A program made the position numbers and the translations under genes. A DNA stretch of 47,331 nucleotides. Source: a virus. Taxonomy: Duplodnaviria; Heunggongvirae; Uroviricota; Caudoviricetes. The notes under the pieces are model-generated. The model searched no databases and was not told the origin of the DNA. It saw only the letters and a program-made list of their open reading frames with translations. Shown here in pieces: positions 4,318 to 41,062 of the stretch. Position 1 is the stretch's first letter, and every line of letters starts with the position of its first letter. The stretch lies in IMG/VR virus record IMGVR_UViG_2778261458_000002; one strand, given 5' to 3'.

Positions 4318-6339
4318 GTGAGTAAATTATTATTTACGATGACTGACGCCGGGCGTCAGGAGTTGGTTAATGCCAACAAAACAGGAACAAATAAAGTTGA
4401 GATTGTTTCTGTTGGTTTAGGTAGTAGATATTATGTCACGTCAACCTCACAAACAAATATAACAGACGAAATAAAACGACTTACCACAATAGGTGGCAAA
4501 GTTGTTTCCCCTGATACAATTCATGTAACGGCGAAGGATGATAGTAAAGATGAGTATGTTGTCCATACAATAGGATTGTATACAAATAAGGGAACGTTGT
4601 TTGCTGTATACTCGCAAGAACAAGCAATAATAAATAAAGCATCATCTACTATTGCTTTAATATCAAGTGACATAGCAATCAAGACTCTTGATACTAAAAA
4701 TATTACATTTGGTGATATTGAGTTTATTAATCCTCCCGCAACCGAAACTGTTGTTGGGGTAGCAAGATTTGCCAATGAACAAGAAATTGATGCAGGTACA
4801 GATGATTCCCTTGCTGTTTCAGCAAAGCGGCTTAAGCAAGCCATTGTGAAACATGAGCAATCACGTAATCATCCCGATGCAACTTTAACCTCAAAAGGCT
4901 TTGTTCAACTTAGCAGCGCCACCAATAGAACGTCTGAAACGCTTGCTGCGACGCCTAAGGCTGTTAAGGCAGCATATGACCTGGCTAATGGCAAATACAC
5001 CGCACAGGACGCTACTACAGCGCGAAAAGGGATTGTTCAGCTCAGTAGTGCCACTAACAGCACGTCTGAAGTGCTGGCCGCCACACCGAAAGCTGTCAAG
5101 GCTGCATATGACCTGGCTAACGGGAAGTATACAGCCCAGGATGCAACCACGGCTCAAAAAGGGATAGTTCAGCTCAGTAGCGACACCAACAGCACTTCTG
5201 AAACATTAGCTGCAACACCAAAAGCGGTTAAAGCTGCATACGATCTAGCAGCCGGAAAGGCACCATCCAGTCATACACATCCCTGGAATCAGATCACTGG
5301 TGTACCAACAGCTTCATTGACAGCGAAAGGCATCACTCAGCTCAGTAGTGCCACTAACAGCACGTCTGAAGTGCTGGCCGCCACACCGAAAGCTGTCAAG
5401 GCTGCATATGACCTGGCTAACGGGAAGTATACAGCCCAGGATGCAACCACGGCTCAAAAAGGGATAGTTCAGCTCAGTAGCGACACCAACAGCACTTCTG
5501 AAACATTAGCTGCAACACCAAAAGCGGTTAAAGCTGCATACGATCTAGCAGCCGGAAAGGCACCATCCAGTCATACACATCCCTGGAATCAGATCACTGG
5601 TGTACCAACAGCTTCATTGACAGCGAAAGGCATCACTCAGCTCAGTAGTGCCACTAACAGCACGTCTGAAGTGCTGGCCGCCACACCGAAAGCTGTCAAG
5701 GCTGCATATGATTTGGCTAATGGAAAGCAAGCGGCAGACGCTACGCTCACTGCTCTAGCGGCACTAGCTACAGCAGCAGATAAACTCCCTTATTTCACAG
5801 GTGTTGATCGTGCCGCGTTAACTGCATTGACAAGTGTTGGACGCGCCATTCTTGGTAAGACCAGTATTCAGAGCGTTCTTGATTACCTTGGTTTGGGAGA
5901 AGGCTCTGCATTACCTGTTGGTGTCCCTGTTCCGTGGCCTTCAGCTACGCCGCCAACAGGCTGGCTGAAATGCAATGGCGCTGCCTTTGATAAGGTTAAA
6001 TATCCCCGTCTTGCTACAGCATATCCATCAGGGAAACTACCTGATCTCCGCGGTGAGTTTATTCGTGGCTGGGATGATGGGCGCGGCATTGATACAGGGC
6101 GTGCTTTATTGAGTATTCAGAGTGATGAAGTCAGAAAGCTCGCATTAAAATACTGGGGGCCAGCTTCAAACAGTTCACCATCAAAAACATTTGCACTCAG
6201 CGACAGTGCCGGTGGCGGGTTGTACACGGATGGAATAAGTCAGGCAAGCGGTGGGATTATCAACGCTTTTCAGCTCCCTGGCGGTAACGAAACCCGCCCA
6301 CGAAATGTTGCATTTAACTATATCGTGAGGGCTGCATAA
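4318..6339 (+). CDS. tail fibre protein with tandem fibre repeats; constant part plus currently expressed variable C-terminal segment (Sv)
   Basis: 673-aa ORF; repeated 40-aa units (GIVQLSSATNSTSEVLAATPKAVKAAYDLA...); C-terminal collar-like receptor-binding domain; the inversion crossover site lies inside the gene at about 5877-5902. Confidence 0.85.
   Translation: MSKLLFTMTDAGRQELVNANKTGTNKVEIVSVGLGSRYYVTSTSQTNITDEIKRLTTIGGKVVSPDTIHVTAKDDSKDEYVVHTIGLYTNKGTLFAVYSQEQAIINKASSTIALISSDIAIKTLDTKNITFGDIEFINPPATETVVGVARFANEQEIDAGTDDSLAVSAKRLKQAIVKHEQSRNHPDATLTSKGFVQLSSATNRTSETLAATPKAVKAAYDLANGKYTAQDATTARKGIVQLSSATNSTSEVLAATPKAVKAAYDLANGKYTAQDATTAQKGIVQLSSDTNSTSETLAATPKAVKAAYDLAAGKAPSSHTHPWNQITGVPTASLTAKGITQLSSATNSTSEVLAATPKAVKAAYDLANGKYTAQDATTAQKGIVQLSSDTNSTSETLAATPKAVKAAYDLAAGKAPSSHTHPWNQITGVPTASLTAKGITQLSSATNSTSEVLAATPKAVKAAYDLANGKQAADATLTALAALATAADKLPYFTGVDRAALTALTSVGRAILGKTSIQSVLDYLGLGEGSALPVGVPVPWPSATPPTGWLKCNGAAFDKVKYPRLATAYPSGKLPDLRGEFIRGWDDGRGIDTGRALLSIQSDEVRKLALKYWGPASNSSPSKTFALSDSAGGGLYTDGISQASGGIINAFQLPGGNETRPRNVAFNYIVRAA
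5041..5711 (+). repeat. perfect 300-bp tandem duplication (2 full copies 5041-5340 and 5341-5640 plus 71-bp third partial copy) inside tail-fibre gene
   Basis: Lines 5041-5340 and 5341-5640 are base-for-base identical; 5641-5711 repeats the first 71 bp; in-frame (100 codons per unit). Confidence 0.9.
5877..5902 (-). other. inversion crossover site (left), Gin/Hin/Cin-type 26-bp site
   Basis: Reverse complement reads TTCTCCCAAACC-AA-GGTAATCAAGAA, resembling hix/gix-type sites; 15-nt core TTGGTTTGGGAGAAG is inverted-repeated at 7736-7750. Confidence 0.55.
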
Positions 6340-8371: not shown

Positions 8372-8502
8372 CTGGAGTTAGGCCAGTAGTATGATGCTCG
8401 CAAAACGAGATCCAATTTAGATCCTTTTACTGGTGGATTATCGTTCGATCAGTGAGAGACTTCGTGCATGACCGAAAGTGTTGTGGTAGAGTTCTCTTAA
8501 AA

Positions 8503-8515
8503 CCACGTAACGTGG
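8503..8515. promoter_or_regulatory. operator-like palindrome CCACGTAACGTGG upstream of repA leader
   Basis: 11/13 match to the CCACATATCGTGG boxes found three times between the CI-like repressor gene and its divergent neighbour. Confidence 0.35.
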
Positions 8516-8559
8516 TTATGATTGTGGGTGTCTGGTTGGAAAGTGACCAGATATGGAAA

Positions 8560-10991: not shown

Positions 10992-11339
10992 ATGTGGACG
11001 GTACTTTTTAGCCAGCGATTTGACGACTGGCTAAATGAGCAAGAAGACGCTCTTCAGGAAAAGGTTTTGGCTGATTTGAAAAATCTACAGGTTTACGGAC
11101 CTGAGTTACCCAGGCCATATGCCGATACCGTAAAAGGTTCTCGGTACAAAAATATGAAAGAGCTTCGCGTTCAGTTTTCTGGCCGTCCGATAAGAGCCTT
11201 TTATGCGTTCGATCCGATTCGCCGGGCTATCGTTCTTTGTGCAGGAGACAAAAGTAACGATAAGCGGTTTTATAAAAAACTGGTGCGTATAGCTGAGGAT
11301 GAGTTTGCAGCACATCTGAACACACTGGAGAGTAAGTAA
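10992..11339 (+). CDS. type II toxin, RelE/ParE superfamily (HigB / Gp49-like)
   Basis: 115-aa ORF, toxin-first order, start-stop overlap with an HTH antitoxin gene; pattern typical of Gp49-like killer proteins. Confidence 0.65.
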   Translation: MWTVLFSQRFDDWLNEQEDALQEKVLADLKNLQVYGPELPRPYADTVKGSRYKNMKELRVQFSGRPIRAFYAFDPIRRAIVLCAGDKSNDKRFYKKLVRIAEDEFAAHLNTLESK

Positions 11340-11638
11340 TGAGAACATTAGATGAGGTGATTGCCAGCCGTTCACCTGAAAGCCAGGCGCGAATTAAAGA
11401 AATGGCAGATGAGATGATTCTTGAGGTCGGCTTGCAGATGATGCGTGAAGAACTCCAGTTATCACAAAAACAGGTTGCTGAGGCGATGGGTATAAGCCAG
11501 CCAGCAGTAACAAAGCTGGAGCAGCGCGGAAATGATTTAAAGCTGGCGACATTAAAGCGTTACGTTGAAGCTATGGGAGGCAAATTAAGCCTGGATGTTG
11601 AGCTTCCCACAGGAAAACGAATAGCGTTTAACATCTGA
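11339..11638 (+). CDS. type II antitoxin, XRE-family HTH (HigA-like)
   Basis: 99-aa ORF with LSQKQVAEAMGISQPAVTKLE helix-turn-helix; ATG overlaps toxin stop. Confidence 0.65.
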   Translation: MRTLDEVIASRSPESQARIKEMADEMILEVGLQMMREELQLSQKQVAEAMGISQPAVTKLEQRGNDLKLATLKRYVEAMGGKLSLDVELPTGKRIAFNI

Positions 11639-12182: not shown

Positions 12183-12192
12183 ACACGATGTG

Positions 12193-12219
12193 CGCAAAGT
12201 GTCATTTTGACACTTTGCG
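12193..12219. promoter_or_regulatory. operator palindrome
   Basis: Perfect 12-bp arms CGCAAAGTGTCA-TTT-TGACACTTTGCG immediately upstream of the HTH gene. Confidence 0.45.
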
Positions 12220-12247
12220 AGTGTTAATATTGTGCGCGGAGGATGCT

Positions 12248-12499
12248 ATGACTGGTTATGAATTGAAATTATGGCGTCGAGGGATGAACTGGACGCAGGA
12301 GCGAGCCGCCGAAGAATTTGGGATATCGTTGGCTACATATAAGCGATATGAGAAGGGGGAGCCGCCGAGGGTCATGGAGATGGCCATTCGCGTTCTGTCG
12401 TTTGACGATATGGTTAAAGATCTTTCACACCTTGATAAAGATGCGATTCTGTTAAGGCTGCAAACCCTTGTATGGGAAAAGGTTAAAGTGTCGTCATAA
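12248..12499 (+). CDS. XRE-family HTH transcriptional regulator
   Basis: 84 aa from ATG 12248 (GGAGG 6 nt upstream); WTQERAAEEFGISLATYKRYE helix-turn-helix; the longer ORF from 12188 would read through its own operator. Confidence 0.55.
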   Translation: MTGYELKLWRRGMNWTQERAAEEFGISLATYKRYEKGEPPRVMEMAIRVLSFDDMVKDLSHLDKDAILLRLQTLVWEKVKVSS

Positions 12500-13791: not shown

Positions 13792-13802
13792 GAATTGAAG
13801 AA

Positions 13803-13826
13803 GCGCCCAAATCGGGCGCTTTGTTT
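13803..13826. terminator. intrinsic terminator shared by convergent genes
   Basis: GCGCCC-AAATC-GGGCGC hairpin followed by TTTGTTTT. Confidence 0.6.
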
Positions 13827-14995
13827 TATGGTTTTGCACCTGCGGCCAGTTTATCCGCAGATATTTTTATCAGTTCCTGTAGTGTCCTGGCTGGCAGGTT
13901 TGCATCCAGTACGCTGAGTATGCTGTTGTGATCAGCTTGGTCGACTACTTTGCCTGTCGGTGGTAGTAGTTTGAGCTGAGGGTTCAGATTTTCGTCAAAG
14001 CTGATAAGTGCTCTGGCGTTTCTGAGCAGATCAAGAAGTAAGGCTGATATCACATTTTCCTGAGTCATTGCTGGCAGATTTAGCGCCGCTTTGGTTTTCC
14101 CTGTTGCCTTGTCAAACTCCTTTATTAGTTCCTTCCTGTAGTTCGGTTCCGTTAATAGCCGATTATGCTCTGTTGCCGCGCGGATAATCGTTTTTTCCTG
14201 GTACAGTCGTTTAGCCAGATCACGCTCGTACTGTGTTTTTAACACGCTGCTGATAGCGTTAAAGGCTTCAATGTAGGCCAGCTTGATATCTTTCACGCCT
14301 GGACCGTCGATACTCTCCATGAGCAAGGTAAATCCGTCTTTTGTCATGCGATAGATTGTTATTTCGCGGTCGCTTCCTTCCAGCGGTCGTTGTTCTTTAA
14401 AGAAGTGACGCGCCGCAGCCGTGCGAGGAATGCGTAACGCATCGATGGCCATAACGATGGAATTGTTTGTGGTGCTGAATGCCTGAGCAACATCGGCTGA
14501 GGTTGTGAGTGGCTCGTTGTTGCACACCTTAATGTAAAATATCGGTTTGGCGTTGAGCGTATCGACAACCTCACGAGCATTGCTTGGCGAGACGGTAACG
14601 GTCGCGGCCGTTTGTGCGTTCTGGTTGAAATAGCAGTCTTCCAGCCGTTCGAACACATCCCACGCTTGGTTAGTTTCAAGCATTTTGGCGTGACGTGCAG
14701 CCCCGCGTTCTGTCCAGAGGATGAGGGAGCGAACTTTCGGGGGAATTTGTAACCCTCTTAAAGATGGTTCGTTAACTACTCTCACAGGAACTCTTAAAGA
14801 GTTTTTGTTCTTCAACTCTCGTAACTCTTTACCTTCTATCCTAAAAAAGTGTTTACCTTCTATAAAACGTTCCTTGTTTCTATTGAAATTGTTTGTCAGA
14901 CGTTGGCGCTCGGTTCCATACAATTGCGCCAGTAGTTCAGTAGTGATAACGGGGATCTGGTTATGCAGGATAGGCTGTAGGGTGTTAACGGTCAT
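13826..14995 (-). CDS. phage antirepressor-like protein (ORF6N/KilAC-type domains)
   Basis: 389-aa ORF; N-terminal ITTELLAQLYGTERQRLTNNFNRNKERF resembles antirepressor N-domains; translationally coupled to a small upstream ORF. Confidence 0.55.
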   Translation of the reverse strand: MTVNTLQPILHNQIPVITTELLAQLYGTERQRLTNNFNRNKERFIEGKHFFRIEGKELRELKNKNSLRVPVRVVNEPSLRGLQIPPKVRSLILWTERGAARHAKMLETNQAWDVFERLEDCYFNQNAQTAATVTVSPSNAREVVDTLNAKPIFYIKVCNNEPLTTSADVAQAFSTTNNSIVMAIDALRIPRTAAARHFFKEQRPLEGSDREITIYRMTKDGFTLLMESIDGPGVKDIKLAYIEAFNAISSVLKTQYERDLAKRLYQEKTIIRAATEHNRLLTEPNYRKELIKEFDKATGKTKAALNLPAMTQENVISALLLDLLRNARALISFDENLNPQLKLLPPTGKVVDQADHNSILSVLDANLPARTLQELIKISADKLAAGAKP

Positions 14996-15183
14996 TTTGC
15001 ACCTCCCATCACTACTTTGGTTACGAGGGAGATTTTTGCGTCAGAAACAGTGTTATCGTTGCTGGCGATGCGCATAGCTTCGCGCTCGATGATTTCAGCC
15101 AGGCGGAATTTATCGGCGTATGAGGCTTTCTTGAGAAGGATCTTTACGAGGTTGACGTAATAGTCATGGGGTAAGTTTGTCAT
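14992..15183 (-). CDS. small protein in the position of P1 icd, upstream of ant
   Basis: 63-aa ORF whose stop overlaps the ant start (ATGA); assignment by position only. Confidence 0.35.
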   Translation of the reverse strand: MTNLPHDYYVNLVKILLKKASYADKFRLAEIIEREAMRIASNDNTVSDAKISLVTKVVMGGAK

Positions 15184-15189
15184 GGTGAT

Positions 15190-15540
15190 AGTTCCCTTAA
15201 AGGTTAAGGATACTCACCACCGTCTGGTTCCAATCATTGGGTGGTGAGACGTACAGGGTTGGAACTACCGGTCACCATGGAATCCGGCGAGTCTTACGAC
15301 TCCCCCGCACGCCCCACCATAATTTGGGTGTAGCAGTGCTTTACGCATAAAAAACCGCTAACGCGGTATGCGCCATGATGATTATCGGGGTTCCAATCCC
15401 GACCGTAGATTTTGCTACGGCTCGGAAAGTGTCCACCAATGGCGCATTCATGTCAATACGGCGAGATTTTAACAGAGACAACCACATAGCGTGGGTTTGA
15501 AAAACGGAATTTTCTGTTCATTAAGCGCATGATTTGACCA
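15190..15540 (-). ncRNA. structured leader / candidate c4-like antisense RNA of the ant operon
   Basis: 350-nt untranslated region with repeated GGTTCCAAYC segments (15227, 15386) and a complementary TTGGAAC segment (15259), plus a CTCACCACC...GGTGGTGAG stem; boundaries unknown. Confidence 0.3.
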
Positions 15541-15576
15541 ATCAAATTTGTTTGATACTGGATTGTTGAGAACATT

Positions 15577-15687
15577 GTGTGAATGTAGGGAACTTATATG
15601 TGAGTATAAGGAACTTTGTGTGATTTATTTGCGAAAAAGTTTGCTTCATATCCAGTTTTTTGGGTATGCTGTGAATGTAGGGAACTA
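15577..15687. promoter_or_regulatory. three 17-bp direct repeats (operator candidates) in divergent intergenic region
   Basis: GTGAATGTAGGGAACT at 15581-15596 and 15671-15686, variant GTGAGTATAAGGAACT at 15600-15615. Confidence 0.4.
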
Positions 15688-15756
15688 GATGGTATTGATT
15701 GTGGTTTCTTTTGAGATTGGAAATTGGTAGTGAATTTAATGCAGAGGAGGTAAAAA

Positions 15757-16296
15757 ATGACTGAAACATCAAAAAATTCATGTTTTTCAACAATTCACCT
15801 AATGATCATAAAAGAACTTAGGCTGGAAAGAGGTGTGCATCAAGGAGTACTGGCTCAAGCTGCCGGAAAAACACCAAACGCATGGACAAAGATAGAGAAC
15901 GGGCAGTCTGTATTAACAGTTGATGCCCTTTTTGGTGCTTGCACAGCCCTTAATATTAGCCCAATGAATTTCATGTTGTTGGTAGAAAAACTGATTCCCG
16001 AATTTAATCGCCATGGTTACTACTTTTTCCCTGGAACAATCAGTCAGGACGAGGATAACCTTTTACCTCTGATGCTGCGTTACTTTAATAGCAAGGGGTT
16101 TGAAGCATTGAGAAATAGGCCATTCGAAAGAATTAGCATAAGCTCAATGGGATTTTCATTTGGGGGCGGCATCCCTGTTACTCCAACTGCTGTAATGTAT
16201 TGTTGCGATGAAGCATACAGAGATTGGGTCGATAACGGTGCTGATACGGATAATCGAGATTATCAGAAGCCATTAACAGGTCTTGGACTGTTTTAA
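15757..16296 (+). CDS. HTH (XRE-like) regulator, candidate repressor of the ant region
   Basis: 179-aa ORF, GAGGAGG RBS; N-terminal LAQAAGKTPNAWTKIENGQSVLTVDALF helix-turn-helix; divergent from ant operon. Confidence 0.5.
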   Translation: MTETSKNSCFSTIHLMIIKELRLERGVHQGVLAQAAGKTPNAWTKIENGQSVLTVDALFGACTALNISPMNFMLLVEKLIPEFNRHGYYFFPGTISQDEDNLLPLMLRYFNSKGFEALRNRPFERISISSMGFSFGGGIPVTPTAVMYCCDEAYRDWVDNGADTDNRDYQKPLTGLGLF

Positions 16297-16733
16297 TGAG
16301 TGAAGAAACAAAAAAACCGCCCTATTGAGGACGGTTCTTTCGTGCTGATCGGATTCGCGGTCCTTTCAGCATTACGTTGTTGTATAAACAACCACGCAAG
16401 CACAAGCAGCAAGTTGATTTTACCCAAAAGGTAATAATAGTCCACTATTATGCTTCAAAAAATTGTGGTTCTTGTTGTGTCTGCAAACTCACAGATTGTG
16501 GGTAGGTTACTGATTTTGTGAAAATAAACTGGTTTTTTCGTTTAATTTATTTCCTATTACTAATCTTAAAATAATCGTAAAATACCTGTGGACCTTCCCG
16601 CCGATTCGCACCCGGGCACCGACTTTAGGGGAGGATTCTCCGTTGCCGTACATGCAAGCACAAGCAGCCGTGCTTGCTCTCGCGTTGTTTTCGTCGGTGG
16701 GGATGCCGTGAAACGGCCTGTAAGGGCCATACA

Positions 16734-16856
16734 ATGAAAAAATACTGTATGTGTATTTTTATCGTTGTTACTGGGGCTTTGTTTACGCCACATGGGGAGG
16801 GTTGGAAGATTACTGATAACGCTCTGAATGTGACGATAAACATTAGCAGCAAGTAG
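16734..16856 (+). CDS. small hydrophobic peptide (40 aa), speculative
   Basis: MKKYCMCIFIVVTGALFTPHG... preceded by a long hairpin-rich leader and followed by a strong terminator; no Hok signature. Confidence 0.25.
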   Translation: MKKYCMCIFIVVTGALFTPHGEGWKITDNALNVTINISSK

Positions 16857-16862
16857 CGATTA

Positions 16863-16884
16863 GGCCCCTTCGGGGGCCTTTTTT
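16863..16884 (+). terminator. intrinsic terminator
   Basis: GGCCCC-TTCG-GGGGCC hairpin followed by TTTTTT. Confidence 0.7.
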
Positions 16885-18577: not shown

Positions 18578-18613
18578 GCGTAGCCTCTTTTATACTTTCA
18601 CATGTTGTCAAAA

Positions 18614-18626
18614 CCACAAAGTGTGG
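18614..18626. promoter_or_regulatory. operator-like palindrome CCACAAAGTGTGG
   Basis: Same CCAC-N5-GTGG architecture as the boxes at 19447-19501. Confidence 0.35.
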
Positions 18627-18669
18627 TTTTTTTGAGCGTAGAAATGCACGGCTTTCGCCGTGCTGTGTA

Positions 18670-19326
18670 TCATAACCAGTTGACAACACTAACTACGCGG
18701 CCAAGAACTTTATAACGCTTAAATTCCTCGTTATTCAGATGCTTAGTGTTCATTTCAGCATCCCTTTCGGTTGACAGCATAACAGCATTGTCACCCGGTA
18801 TGACTCTACAGTGCCTCAAAACAACCAGGCCATTTCTGTCTTCAAGGGCATAGATCCCCTCATGAATCTCTGTATCGTCTGTATCAATCAGGACTTGGGA
18901 GCCTGGGGATATTGTTGGTGACATTAACTCATCGTTGCTCTGGAGAACTGACAGAGACGATGGGTTGATGTTCTTGCTTCGTAGAATCTCCTGTTCTATC
19001 GCCAGCACTGGCTTTTCTCCGGCGTGCGATGCTATGTCATTTTTTATGGCTACAAGCCCAGGAATAACAGGAGCGTTAGTATTCTGGGGTGGGAACGGGT
19101 TATCTGTTAAGCACGCGATATAAGGCGCTGATGCTTTCAGGGCGTGCGCAATTTTCTTGATGGCAGGTATAGATGGTTGTCTTAATCCGGCCTCATAGTT
19201 CTGCAAGGTGCTTAAGCCTATTCCAGTGACTTGCTGGAGATCTCCGGCAGTCATGCCGGATTGTTTCCGTAGAGTCTGAATGCGCAGACCTATTTCTTTC
19301 TTGATGTTCTCGTCGTTGCTTTTCAT
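18670..19326 (-). CDS. CI/LexA-like repressor (N-terminal HTH, C-terminal S24 peptidase-like domain)
   Basis: 218-aa ORF; HTH IGLRIQTLRKQSGMTAGDLQQVTGIGLSTLQNYEAG; C-terminal domain with Ser (ELMSP) and Lys (KVLGRVV) as in autocleaving repressors. Confidence 0.75.
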   Translation of the reverse strand: MKSNDENIKKEIGLRIQTLRKQSGMTAGDLQQVTGIGLSTLQNYEAGLRQPSIPAIKKIAHALKASAPYIACLTDNPFPPQNTNAPVIPGLVAIKNDIASHAGEKPVLAIEQEILRSKNINPSSLSVLQSNDELMSPTISPGSQVLIDTDDTEIHEGIYALEDRNGLVVLRHCRVIPGDNAVMLSTERDAEMNTKHLNNEEFKRYKVLGRVVSVVNWL

Positions 19327-19364
19327 GTCTCATCAATCGTGAATGGTGGGTTATTTATACATTA

Positions 19365-19501
19365 CCACATTTAGTGGTTTTCACATGGTAAGACGAGAGG
19401 TGGACCACAAATAGAAGGTTATTTTTTGTTTCGCCCATTGAAAAGCTCACGATATGTGGTTTTAATACCACATATCGTGGTTTTAATACCACATATCGTG
19501 G
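19365..19501. promoter_or_regulatory. operator array between divergent repressor and early genes
   Basis: CCACATATCGTGG at 19468-19480 and 19489-19501, inverted variant at 19447-19459 (21-bp spacing), variant CCACATTTAGTGG at 19365-19377. Confidence 0.55.
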
Positions 19502-19521
19502 TTTTAATTGGAGTTCGTTAA

Positions 19522-40718: not shown

Positions 40719-41062
40719 TGAACTCCTTCAAAGAGGTTATAGCGCAAGATATTTCTGCAATATTCCTCAATGAAAAAGAGTTTGCCGATACATATAACAT
40801 AGACGGCAAGGATATCCTTGCCGTTATTGATACAGACCTTATTCATGAGCGGAATAAACGCTCATATGCTGAGTTTGCAGAGGGAATAAATCAGGGGCAA
40901 ATAATATTATTTGTTTCAAGAAAAGATTTTCCTGTTCTCCCAGTCAAAGACCAGTCAATGAAAATCAACGGTAAAAATTATATTGTTGATGAAGTATCAG
41001 ATAATGTTGGTGTATTGGAAATAACTCTCACTGTTAATACTAACAGAGGAATGCCGATTTGA
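40718..41062 (+). CDS. head completion / head-tail connector protein (FII-like position)
   Basis: 114-aa ORF, coupled to neighbours. Confidence 0.3.
   Translation: MNSFKEVIAQDISAIFLNEKEFADTYNIDGKDILAVIDTDLIHERNKRSYAEFAEGINQGQIILFVSRKDFPVLPVKDQSMKINGKNYIVDEVSDNVGVLEITLTVNTNRGMPI

Follow-up and report, generated by a model that had tools for sequence, protein, structure and literature searches.

Organization of the antirepressor operon and its leader

The 47 kb of viral DNA analysed here (47,331 nt, hereafter the window) includes a two-gene operon on the minus strand, preceded by a structured leader in which both a C4 and an IsrK RNA are found. The locus is very probably a C4/IsrK-type anti-immunity operon of a temperate phage-plasmid of E. 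coli (~48 kb), and its features are collected in Table 1. The two genes, for proteins of 389 and 63 aa, are present as described in the initial annotation, and overlap by 4 nt (ATGA). The leader is shorter than the ~350 nt given there, extending over about 238 nt (15421 to 15184), while nt 15422-15500 are promoter and upstream DNA.

Table 1. Features of the operon, its leader and the adjacent cassette, with positions in the window.
Feature	Position	Strand	Details
XRE-family HTH protein, 179 aa	15757-16296	+	Pfam HTH_3, HTH_31
Three 17-bp direct repeats	15578-15594, 15599-15615 (3 mismatches), 15670-15686	+	Core GTGA-N6-GGAACT
Palindrome ACCACATAGCGTGGG	15481-15495		Candidate operator of the CI-like repressor
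Inferred sigma-70 operon promoter	15428-15456	-	TTGACA 15456-15451, 17-nt spacer, GACACT 15433-15428
IsrK / c4-a1b1-type leader RNA	15348-15421	-	Rfam RF01394, 65.4 bits (threshold 50), full length
C4-type antisense RNA	15237-15324	-	Rfam RF01695, 84.3 bits (threshold 45), model positions 1-87 of 87
Target box a2, UUGGAAC	15227-15233	-	Perfect 7-nt complement of a'; 4 nt past C4 3' end
Predicted hairpin holding Shine-Dalgarno AAGGG (15194-15198)	15190-15214	-	Inverted repeat and folds
Target box b2, UCACCAUG	15181-15188	-	Perfect 8-nt complement of b'; positions -5 to +3 of the 63-codon ORF start codon
63-codon leader cistron	14992-15183	-	Stop overlaps antirepressor start (AUGA)
Antirepressor, 389 aa	13826-14995	-	ORF6N and Rha domains, uncharacterised C-terminal part
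G+C-rich hairpin	13800-13822		Terminator scan; between convergent 211-aa gene and antirepressor gene

The 63-aa protein matches phrog_7886 (1e-46), a family of unknown function, and its homologues in E. coli, Salmonella, Yersinia, Hafnia and Erwinia are nearly all of the same length (60–98% identity). In three of four more distant loci inspected, the gene for the homologue also overlaps the following one by 4 nt. The antirepressor has Pfam matches to ORF6N (5e-22) and Phage_pRha (4e-12), is matched by anti-repressor families of PHROG as well, and has a Shine-Dalgarno sequence of its own (GGAGG, 7 nt upstream). The G+C-rich hairpin beyond its gene probably marks the end of the operon, where it would be used on the minus strand.

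Transcription is likely to begin at about G15421, as read from the sequence. The -10 hexamer of the proposed promoter is weak (3/6 consensus positions), which is why a promoter scan did not list it, and the TTGAC-type -35 and TAnAnT -10 hexamers that precede isrK in 14 other loci, including those of Gifsy-1 and N15, are in register with this promoter. Control of the operon by LexA was considered and rejected, the sole CTGT-N8-ACAG sequence in the window being far off, at 41031, and at chance level. A palindrome upstream of the promoter shares 13 of its 15 positions with the cI-cro operator (ACCACATATCGTGGT), and CCAC-N5-GTGG occurs seven times in the window, where 0.41 copies are expected. Its centre is ~67 nt upstream of the inferred transcription start, outside the core promoter. 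The palindrome is retained in all relatives and is the last conserved element, with homology breaking off beyond it (~15497); no counterpart was seen upstream of the N15 promoter. In P1, an operator for the primary repressor (Op51) is part of the immI operon.

The IsrK RNA has the layout of its family (isrK/c4-a1b1), with two hairpins and a terminator, and lies directly 3' of the promoter and directly 5' of C4. Further traits of this family are binding by Hfq and a short RNA species ended at the terminator. Its decoy box a1 (UUGGAAC, 15390-15396) occupies the loop of hairpin 2, and box b1 (UCAUCAUGG, 15373-15381) is in the linker, ending 5 nt ahead of the hairpin of a short intrinsic terminator detected by a terminator scan at 15348-15367. 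The C4 RNA has a minimum-energy fold of -44.3 kcal/mol (z = -4.57), in which a long closing stem surrounds two inner hairpins. Box b' (CCAUGGUGA, 15272-15280) is in the loop of hairpin 2, box a' (GUUCCAA, 15259-15265) is in an unpaired junction, and the Rfam alignment shows an unpaired, tRNA-like 3' tail (CCCAA) after the closing stem. In P1 and P7, C4 is reported to be released from a longer precursor by RNase P.

Each of the two C4 boxes has one complement upstream, within IsrK, and one downstream, with matches of 7, 7, 9 and 8 nt. A GGTTCCAAYC-type repeat had been pointed out in the initial annotation, and this is borne out by GGTTCCAATC, which occurs exactly twice in the window (15226 and 15389; 0.19 copies expected, two copies reached in 2/100 shuffles) with its complement TTGGAAC between the two (15259-15265). 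The complementary segments noticed at that stage make up one set of boxes, and a second set (15272-15280, 15373-15381 and 15181-15188) had been missed. Downstream of C4, the predicted hairpin that holds the Shine-Dalgarno sequence has a modest z-score (-1.4 to -2.3), and a predicted outer helix pairs GGUGGUGAG (15213-15221) with the start-codon region. In the predicted fold of the full leader (-98.7 kcal/mol, z = -4.66), a1 and b1 are paired with a' and b'.

Co-variation of the pairing boxes

In each of the 17 loci scanned, P1, N15 and Gifsy-1 among them, C4 was found to follow an a1b1-type element. The upstream element is isrK in 15 of these and c4-a1b1 in P1, while in SW-37 C4 alone was detected at threshold. 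In a positional scan, a perfect 7–8 nt complement of a' was found right after C4 in 17/17 loci, and the isrK hairpin-2 loop contains such a complement as well in those loci where the loop aligns. For b', a 7–12 nt complement is present in the isrK linker and again 30–50 nt past C4 (17 loci compared). The boxes themselves are diverse: the 17 loci have no fewer than 10 distinct sequences for a and no fewer than 13 for b. When C4 RNAs were compared for pairing with all targets, their own target ranked first in 15 of 16 cases for the downstream site and in 16 of 16 for isrK; the C4 of the window pairs with the target of a Citrobacter phage about as well as with its own.

A formal count of pairs was made for a1/b1 against a'/b', and the pairs a'/a2 and b'/b2 were judged by the positional scan, as the alignment is disrupted by indels beyond C4. 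In the 15 loci counted, 92% of cells were paired and 14 of 16 pairs had changed on both sides, a result equalled by none of 500 shuffles, while controls slid along the alignment were 28–55% paired. Co-variation of the boxes is also seen at closer range. Three alleles occur within the phage-plasmid family, with concerted change at three sites: type 1 (b boxes CCAUGGUGA / UCACCAUG / UCAUCAUGG), type 2 (b boxes GUCAUUGUGU / CACAAUGAC / ACACAAUGG) and type 3 (a boxes UUAGCCU / AGGCUAA / UUAGCCU). The central proposal of the initial annotation, that an antisense RNA and its targets are co-transcribed as in c4-type control, is strongly supported by these concerted changes, by the co-variation among loci and by C4 and isrK matches above the Rfam thresholds.

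A further proposal, tentative and on the whole doubtful, is that the a and b boxes have been exchanged independently in the family, giving at least three anti-immunity specificities and leaving near-identical elements possibly heteroimmune, and that the CI-like repressor may bind the palindrome at -67, coupling the main switch to the production of C4 and IsrK. If true, the IsrK:C4 ratio, and not a protein repressor, would be the induction threshold of the plasmid prophage.

Relationship to characterized anti-immunity systems

The switch is of a known phage type, cleanly preserved, and does not represent a new kind of system. In P1 and P7, the first cistron of immI is icd, which specifies a cell-division inhibitor. 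The operon (c4 - icd - ant1/2) was reportedly described by Citron and Schuster in 1990. It is summarised in PMC12197685. As in immI of P1/P7, the locus in the window consists of a1b1, C4, a2b2, a small ORF and an overlapping antirepressor gene, and Rfam gives the same c4-a1b1/C4 order in P1. As in P1, the small ORF has the second target box in its translation initiation region, and natural specificity alleles exist, as between P1 and P7. The proteins, however, are unrelated to those of P1: the 63-aa protein and Icd gave no BLASTP alignment, and have in common only their position and the overlapping stop and start, and the antirepressor gave no significant alignment to Ant. The label 'P1 immI-like' in the initial annotation suits the RNA part of the locus but not these proteins, the antirepressor being homologous to AnrP of Gifsy-1. 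The RNA part also differs from P1 in that the upstream target element is the longer IsrK form with its own terminator, and in that b2 covers the AUG rather than the Shine-Dalgarno sequence.

The immA anti-immunity region of the linear phage-plasmid N15 is said to have been described by Ravin et al. in 1999. That work is cited in PMC4488713. An isrK-type element with a terminator, a C4-type RNA, a small ORF and antirepressor genes are shared with immA, and both elements are plasmid prophages with a CI-like primary repressor. In contrast to the two genes found here, N15 has three, and the proteins are dissimilar, with no significant alignment of the antirepressor to gp30 and no relationship apparent by eye between the first residues of the small ORFs.

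In Gifsy-1, anrP is driven by the isrK promoter, in a read-through mRNA that is silent in translation; providing IsrK in trans increases translation of anrP more than 100-fold (139-fold), translation of an upstream ORF is needed, and the isrK promoter is required for a stable RNA encoded downstream of IsrK (PMC4825925, Hershko-Shalev et al. 2016). The operon in the window resembles this region (isrK-orf45/STnc1160-anrP) in having the promoter in register and IsrK with its terminator followed by a C4-family RNA. Downstream of isrK, both encode an AnrP-type antirepressor N-terminal domain (53% identity over residues 1-125 of the antirepressor, E = 9e-52), and here, as in Gifsy-1, the antirepressor would depend on an upstream reading frame. 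The differences are also clear. In the window, C4 and the antirepressor gene are separated by a conserved 63-codon cistron, whereas the upstream ORF proposed for Gifsy-1 is inside the C4 stretch, in a frame that is closed in the window. A Q-like antiterminator gene is missing upstream, the neighbour on that side being a cassette with an HTH gene, and isrJ, which is found in Gifsy-1, has no Rfam match in the window. The antirepressor is twice as long as AnrP, with an added Rha domain, and the host element is a plasmid prophage. The published Gifsy-1 model is at odds with a repressor role for C4, as it takes the C4-homologous stretch to be coding ('orf45') and assigns regulation to IsrK as an activator rather than to C4 as a repressor (PMC4825925). 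The same authors name the CI RNA of P4 as a structural relative (PMC4825925). By description, the P4 RNA (seqA, seqC) is a processed leader RNA which, like C4, has one complementary target upstream and one downstream in the same transcript, but it controls replication genes rather than an antirepressor.

Proposed control of the antirepressor, and the adjacent HTH cassette

From this layout we infer the following course of events. Transcription from about 15421 would first produce the 74 nt IsrK-like RNA, and many transcripts probably stop at this point because IsrK ends in a short intrinsic terminator. Read-through transcripts would carry C4 (15324-15237) which, by analogy with P1, would be cut out and accumulate. 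Its two single-stranded boxes could then pair with a2, just downstream, and with b2, over the AUG of the 63-codon ORF, blocking initiation of translation of that ORF. The antirepressor would not be made either, because its start overlaps the stop of the blocked ORF, and the untranslated RNA would probably also be terminated or degraded. IsrK has a second copy of both targets (a1 and b1), so it could bind C4 in cis or in trans and set the threshold for escape of the antirepressor. The antirepressor, when produced, would inactivate the 218-aa CI-like repressor (18670-19326), leading to prophage induction. Most likely, the antirepressor is kept silent in this way by a small C4-type antisense RNA that derives from the operon's own leader. 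C4 may not be the sole block on the start region, because the latter is predicted to be in a hairpin even without C4. Counting against the proposed course is the position of b2, which is on the AUG here and abuts the Shine-Dalgarno sequence in most other loci.

The homologous RNAs of N15 and P4 are reported to act by premature termination of transcription. C4 might similarly exert its control mainly on transcription elongation, with pairing to a1/b1 in the nascent leader or to a2/b2 causing transcription to end early, at the IsrK terminator or a Rho-dependent site, so that no antirepressor mRNA is formed. This is a realistic possibility, though not a probable one, and may coexist with a translational block. 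It is favoured by N15, which has the same isrK and C4 tandem and a record that annotates a rho-independent terminator exactly at the isrK terminator, and by the short distance between b1 and the terminator hairpin in the window. The Gifsy-1 authors suggest likewise by analogy with the P4 CI RNA, and IsrK in trans raised an anrP transcriptional fusion 8-fold, yet this is much less than the 139-fold effect on translation (PMC4825925). The location of b2 on the start codon is, moreover, the geometry expected for a translational block.

The Gifsy-1 model could also apply literally, the read-through mRNA being silent by its own fold and opened by IsrK as a trans-activator, in which case the C4-like stretch would only belong to this fold and would not act as a repressor RNA of its own. 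Besides the experiments on Gifsy-1 itself (PMC4825925), the predicted leader fold agrees with such a scheme, since it pairs a1/b1 with a'/b' in cis and has the start region in a hairpin. We nonetheless consider it unlikely for this operon. The frame that matches orf45 (AUG in AAUUAUGG) is closed after eight codons, and the C4 fold is one retained by a covariance model built from P1-type antisense RNAs. In addition, a2/b2 co-vary with a'/b', which a model acting only in cis does not need, and a stable processed RNA from the C4 stretch exists in Salmonella. The three alleles, in near-identical backbones, provide a natural experiment on the specificity of C4-type immunity, and could show which model of the same RNA pair holds, that of P1 (repressor RNA) or that of Gifsy-1 (activator RNA).

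Beyond the palindrome lies the divergent gene for a 179-aa HTH protein, which the initial annotation had correctly described and, together with three direct repeats, had taken for a second immunity layer of the module. The protein has a conserved C-terminal domain of unknown fold, and full-length homologues were found; its AlphaFold model has a pLDDT of 85.5, and PDB matches cover the N-terminal HTH domain only. Searches with PADLOC and NCBIfam for a known defence or toxin-antitoxin component gave generic HTH matches only. All three repeats are present, the first starting at 15578 rather than 15581, with no further copies in the window, and none of 100 shuffles reached three. The third copy covers the start of a candidate promoter for the HTH gene (TTGCTT 15641-15646, TATGCT 15665-15670), which was recognised by sequence alone. 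A plasmid origin was considered for the repeats and rejected, as they are missing from close relatives that are complete circular plasmids.

If the HTH protein were to bind these repeats and repress or activate the antirepressor operon, independently of the CI-like repressor, it would form such a layer. In favour of this are the divergent, adjacent position of the gene, the significance of the repeats and the presence of their GGAAC core in the three a boxes of the leader DNA as well. The repeats are, however, 157–265 nt upstream of the operon start, outside the conserved module, and the a boxes of the type 3 allele lack GGAAC. The whole region (about 15498-16300) is an indel relative to close relatives, in which homology stops at ~15497: two relatives keep the entire operon and lack the cassette, and a third has the HTH gene without the three repeats. 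The plasmid of ATCC 25922 retains the repeats, which are missing where the cassette is missing. Homologues in Vibrio, Deefgea and Advenella are solitary, with no antirepressor neighbour, and have GGAAC repeats upstream that adjoin their own promoters. The HTH gene is a separate, optional cassette, and a second layer of control by its product is very unlikely. Reading the repeats as operators remains plausible, but for the HTH gene and not for the antirepressor module: as the GGAAC core is found again ahead of distant homologues, the repeats probably serve the HTH protein as its own operators.

That the module is a decaying remnant, functionless in this element, is most improbable: the -10 hexamer is weak and the antirepressor gene is split, truncated or a pseudogene in some relatives, but both ORFs are intact, both RNA models are matched over their full length, the three family alleles changed in concert at three sites, and at least 73 complete E. 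coli genomes contain the leader, small ORF included, over 80% or more of its length.

The proposed silencing of the antirepressor by C4 provides a mechanistic reading of a region which, in dozens of E. coli plasmids and three Yersinia phages, bears no label beyond 'hypothetical protein / ORF6N domain protein'. Some spurious gene calls for an 'Ash family protein' are explained as translations of the C4 RNA gene.

The antirepressor operon and its leader RNAs

Curated Rfam models place two RNA genes, isrK and then C4, in the leader of the minus-strand antirepressor operon. The C4 stretch adopts a predicted family-like fold (-44.3 kcal/mol, z -4.57), and a short hairpin with a U run is found at the end of the isrK stretch. 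Directly upstream of isrK are the hexamers TTGACA and GACACT, separated by a 17-nt spacer and in register with the isrK promoters of 14 other loci. One of these is Gifsy-1, in which experiments showed that the downstream antirepressor gene is expressed from the isrK promoter (PMC4825925). An untranslated leader of about 350 nt had been described in the initial annotation; such a leader is present, but because the candidate promoter lies directly upstream of isrK its length is reduced to about 238 nt. The window holds exactly two copies of the repeated leader segment GGTTCCAATC, at 15226 and 15389, with its complement between them. The three 17-bp direct repeats are the only ones in the 47 kb, and three copies arose in none of 100 shuffles. 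Since the ORFs, the short repeat and the 17-bp repeats were all found, that observation is confirmed, with slightly corrected coordinates.

Features of the antirepressor operon, its pairing boxes and associated candidate operators (window positions unless a comparison locus, L, is named)
Feature	Position	Strand	Description
389-aa ORF (antirepressor)	13826-14995	-	ORF
63-aa ORF (leader cistron)	14992-15183	-	ORF; stop overlaps antirepressor start as ATGA
C4 antisense RNA	15237-15324	-	Rfam, 84.3 bits (threshold 45), full length
isrK RNA	15348-15421	-	Rfam, 65.4 bits (threshold 50)
179-aa ORF (HTH)	15757-16296	+	ORF, divergent from operon
17-bp direct repeats	15578, 15599, 15670
b'		-	CCAUGGUGA; loop of hairpin 2 of C4
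a'		-	GUUCCAA; C4 junction
a1		-	UUGGAAC; loop of isrK hairpin 2
b1		-	UCAUCAUGG; isrK linker
a2		-	UUGGAAC; starts 4 nt after C4
b2	15181-15188	-	UCACCAUG; over start codon of 63-codon ORF
ACCAC-N5-GTGGT-type palindrome	8502-8516		50 nt upstream of IncFII-RepA-like gene at 8553
Palindrome ACCACATAGCGTGGG	15481-15495		last conserved element of antirepressor module; centre ~67 nt upstream of inferred transcription start
ACCAC-N5-GTGGT-type palindrome	18613-18627		just 3' of repressor gene; also terminator-like
GGAAC, Vibrio parahaemolyticus	L020 4902-4926		perfect 12+12 palindrome
GGAAC, Deefgea	L022 ~4940-4960		inverted repeat just after -10-like hexamer TATACT
GGAAC, Advenella	L024 4706-4892		six to eight tandem 20-bp units of AGGAACATGCATATCTTTTC

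In the 389-aa protein, ORF6N and Rha domains are recognised, along with matches to PHROG anti-repressor families. Its residues 1-125 are 53% identical to AnrP of Gifsy-1, but neither P1 Ant nor N15 gp30 is similar to it, and the 63-aa ORF likewise lacks similarity to P1 Icd. In RNA content the operon is closest to the C4/isrK (c4-a1b1) family, and for the antirepressor to the Gifsy-1 isrK-anrP locus, whereas in layout, with a small overlapping leader cistron, it is closest to P1 immI and N15 immA, the proteins of which are unrelated to those here.

The 63-aa ORF represents a conserved family, almost always 63 aa long, in E. coli, Salmonella, Yersinia, Hafnia and Erwinia. Among four more distant loci, the homologue overlaps the next gene by 4 nt in three and has no gene directly after it in the fourth; what follows differs between loci (an ORF6N gene, a P22_AR_N gene or small ORFs), and upstream are isrK and C4 in one locus and sRNA-Xcc1 in two. 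The ORF behaves as a portable leader cistron. The sRNA-Xcc1 (RF02221) matches, at L025 3876-3960 (an Erwinia prophage) and L027 3882-3965 (another enterobacterial locus), are found where isrK and C4 are expected, so the same slot is taken by a different small RNA family. In relatives of 15184-15280 (proteins P0032 and P0039), certain gene callers lengthen the 63-aa ORF into a 95-aa product named 'ash family protein'. The Pfam PF10554 match at residues 2-39 of this version corresponds to translation of the C4 3' half plus the a2 region, and the name seems to have arisen spuriously when an RNA gene was translated. On E. coli chromosomes, too, genes called 'ash family protein' coincide with C4-like matches.

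Pairing boxes and proposed control

The complements of the two antisense boxes of C4, a' and b', each occur twice on the transcript, in isrK (a1, b1) and downstream of C4 (a2, b2). Complementary leader segments had been noted previously, and the a set is borne out, but the b set had been missed. The loci fetched for comparison were P1, N15, Gifsy-1, ST64B, Stx phages, phiV10, APSE-2, P88 and others. Rfam found C4 in every one, preceded by isrK in all but P1, which has c4-a1b1 in its place, and SW-37, which has no isrK match at threshold. The same four complements are present in the 17 loci compared, with differing box sequences (10 or more versions of the a box and 13 or more of the b box), and the best partner of each C4 is its own target in 15 of 16 cases for the downstream target and in all 16 for isrK. 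When a1/b1 were counted against a'/b' in 15 loci, 92% of cells were paired and both sides had changed in 14 of the 16 pairs; no shuffle of 500 was as good, and sliding the partner by 1-3 columns gave 28-55% paired.

Near-identical relatives provide the sharpest evidence for the pairing. In three plasmids, among them that of ATCC 25922 (type 2), nearly all differences from the window (type 1) fall in b', b1 and b2, and these boxes have changed together; in pWP5-S18-ESBL-08_3 (type 3) all three a boxes are exchanged in addition (UUAGCCU / AGGCUAA / UUAGCCU). Such box exchange agrees with the reported heteroimmunity of P1 and P7 (summarised in PMC12197685). The third allele lies at L029 515-860, in a plasmid that is otherwise similar; one inner C4 hairpin is altered with compensating substitutions, and the antirepressor gene of this plasmid is annotated as split or truncated.

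Most likely, C4 blocks initiation at the leader cistron and isrK carries decoys. C4 would be made from read-through transcripts and pair with a2 and b2. Translation of the antirepressor would then fail as well, because its start overlaps the leader-cistron stop; IsrK RNA would supply decoy targets able to bind C4. Control may be mainly translational or work through premature termination, RNase P may process C4, and the 389-aa protein may act on the 218-aa CI-like repressor. The published Gifsy-1 results fit this reading: the read-through mRNA is silent, antirepressor translation rises more than 100-fold with IsrK in trans, an upstream reading frame is needed, and a stable RNA dependent on the isrK promoter arises from the C4 stretch (PMC4825925). 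In the predicted fold of the whole leader, a1/b1 are paired with a'/b' in cis and the ribosome-binding region lies within a hairpin. The AUG proposed to start 'orf45' in Gifsy-1 falls within AAUUAUGG, a conserved segment at the C4 5' end (15300-15320, minus strand), and as this frame closes after 8 codons in the window, there is no conserved orf45 equivalent. The main value of the system lies in its three natural specificity alleles and the possible roles of IsrK and C4.

The HTH cassette and candidate operators

The divergent HTH gene had been suggested to form a second immunity layer, a proposal that is not upheld; its cassette is not a layer of the antirepressor module. Operon homology stops at ~15497 in an alignment with four relatives, and two plasmids continue from that break directly to the sequence at window position 16305, so ~15498-16300 is an optional cassette. 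A Yersinia phage carries the HTH gene with a different upstream region, without the three repeats. Vibrio, Deefgea, Advenella and Photobacterium have full-length homologues (45-57% identity). The three contexts examined, from Vibrio, Deefgea and Advenella, each show a solitary gene, adjacent to a prophage integrase or surrounded by defence-type genes; none has an antirepressor as its neighbour. The C-terminal domain gave a confident structure model, with no match in PDB.

Because GGAAC, the conserved core of the 17-bp repeats, recurs upstream of distant HTH homologues, the repeats are most likely operators of the HTH protein itself; the third overlaps the start of a candidate promoter. The a boxes (15226-15235, 15258-15266 and 15389-15398) also contain this presumed half-site pentamer, as GGAAC/GTTCC, which is probably a coincidence; the pentamer is missing from type 3 a boxes and is kept in plasmids without the HTH gene.

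Four palindromes of the ACCACAT-N-GTGGT type are found in the cI-cro intergenic region (19364-19502), and the whole window contains seven CCAC-N5-GTGG sites where 0.41 would be expected. In P1, Op51 ties the antirepressor operon to the primary repressor, and the candidate palindrome at 15481-15495 may do so here, a link absent from the initial annotation. Its effect is not predictable because it lies outside the core promoter. No LexA box was found near the operon. Via the candidate palindrome before the RepA-like gene, the CI-like repressor may also control plasmid replication.

The element and its relatives

The window is an essentially complete temperate phage-plasmid. Over the parts compared, its identity to the three Yersinia phages vB_YpM_39, 41 and 44 is 93-99%, and it also matches about 60 non-mobilizable plasmids of ~48 kb each (Escherichia in 58 of 60), one of them in ATCC 25922. 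Encoded are an IncFII-type RepA, ParA, a HigB/HigA-like pair, a Hin-type invertase and the CI-like repressor, which has a weak S24 peptidase match. At least 73 of 5426 complete E. coli genomes carry the operon leader with 80% or more of its length covered, and the annotated features beneath these matches list no RNA gene.

A Gp49/HigB-like toxin gene overlapping an HTH antitoxin gene lies at 10992-11638 (+), and another small HTH gene, with a weak MqsA-like match, at 12188-12499 (+). A full-length ryfA RNA match (141.8 bits) spans 16588-16884 (+), and the element is kept in relatives (L002 5709-6007 and L003 4962-5258). Inside it is a hydrophobic 40-codon ORF with its ATG at 16734 (MKKYCMCIFIVVTGALF...), which is similar to the small toxin encoded by the RyfA/TimP type I system and may aid plasmid maintenance.
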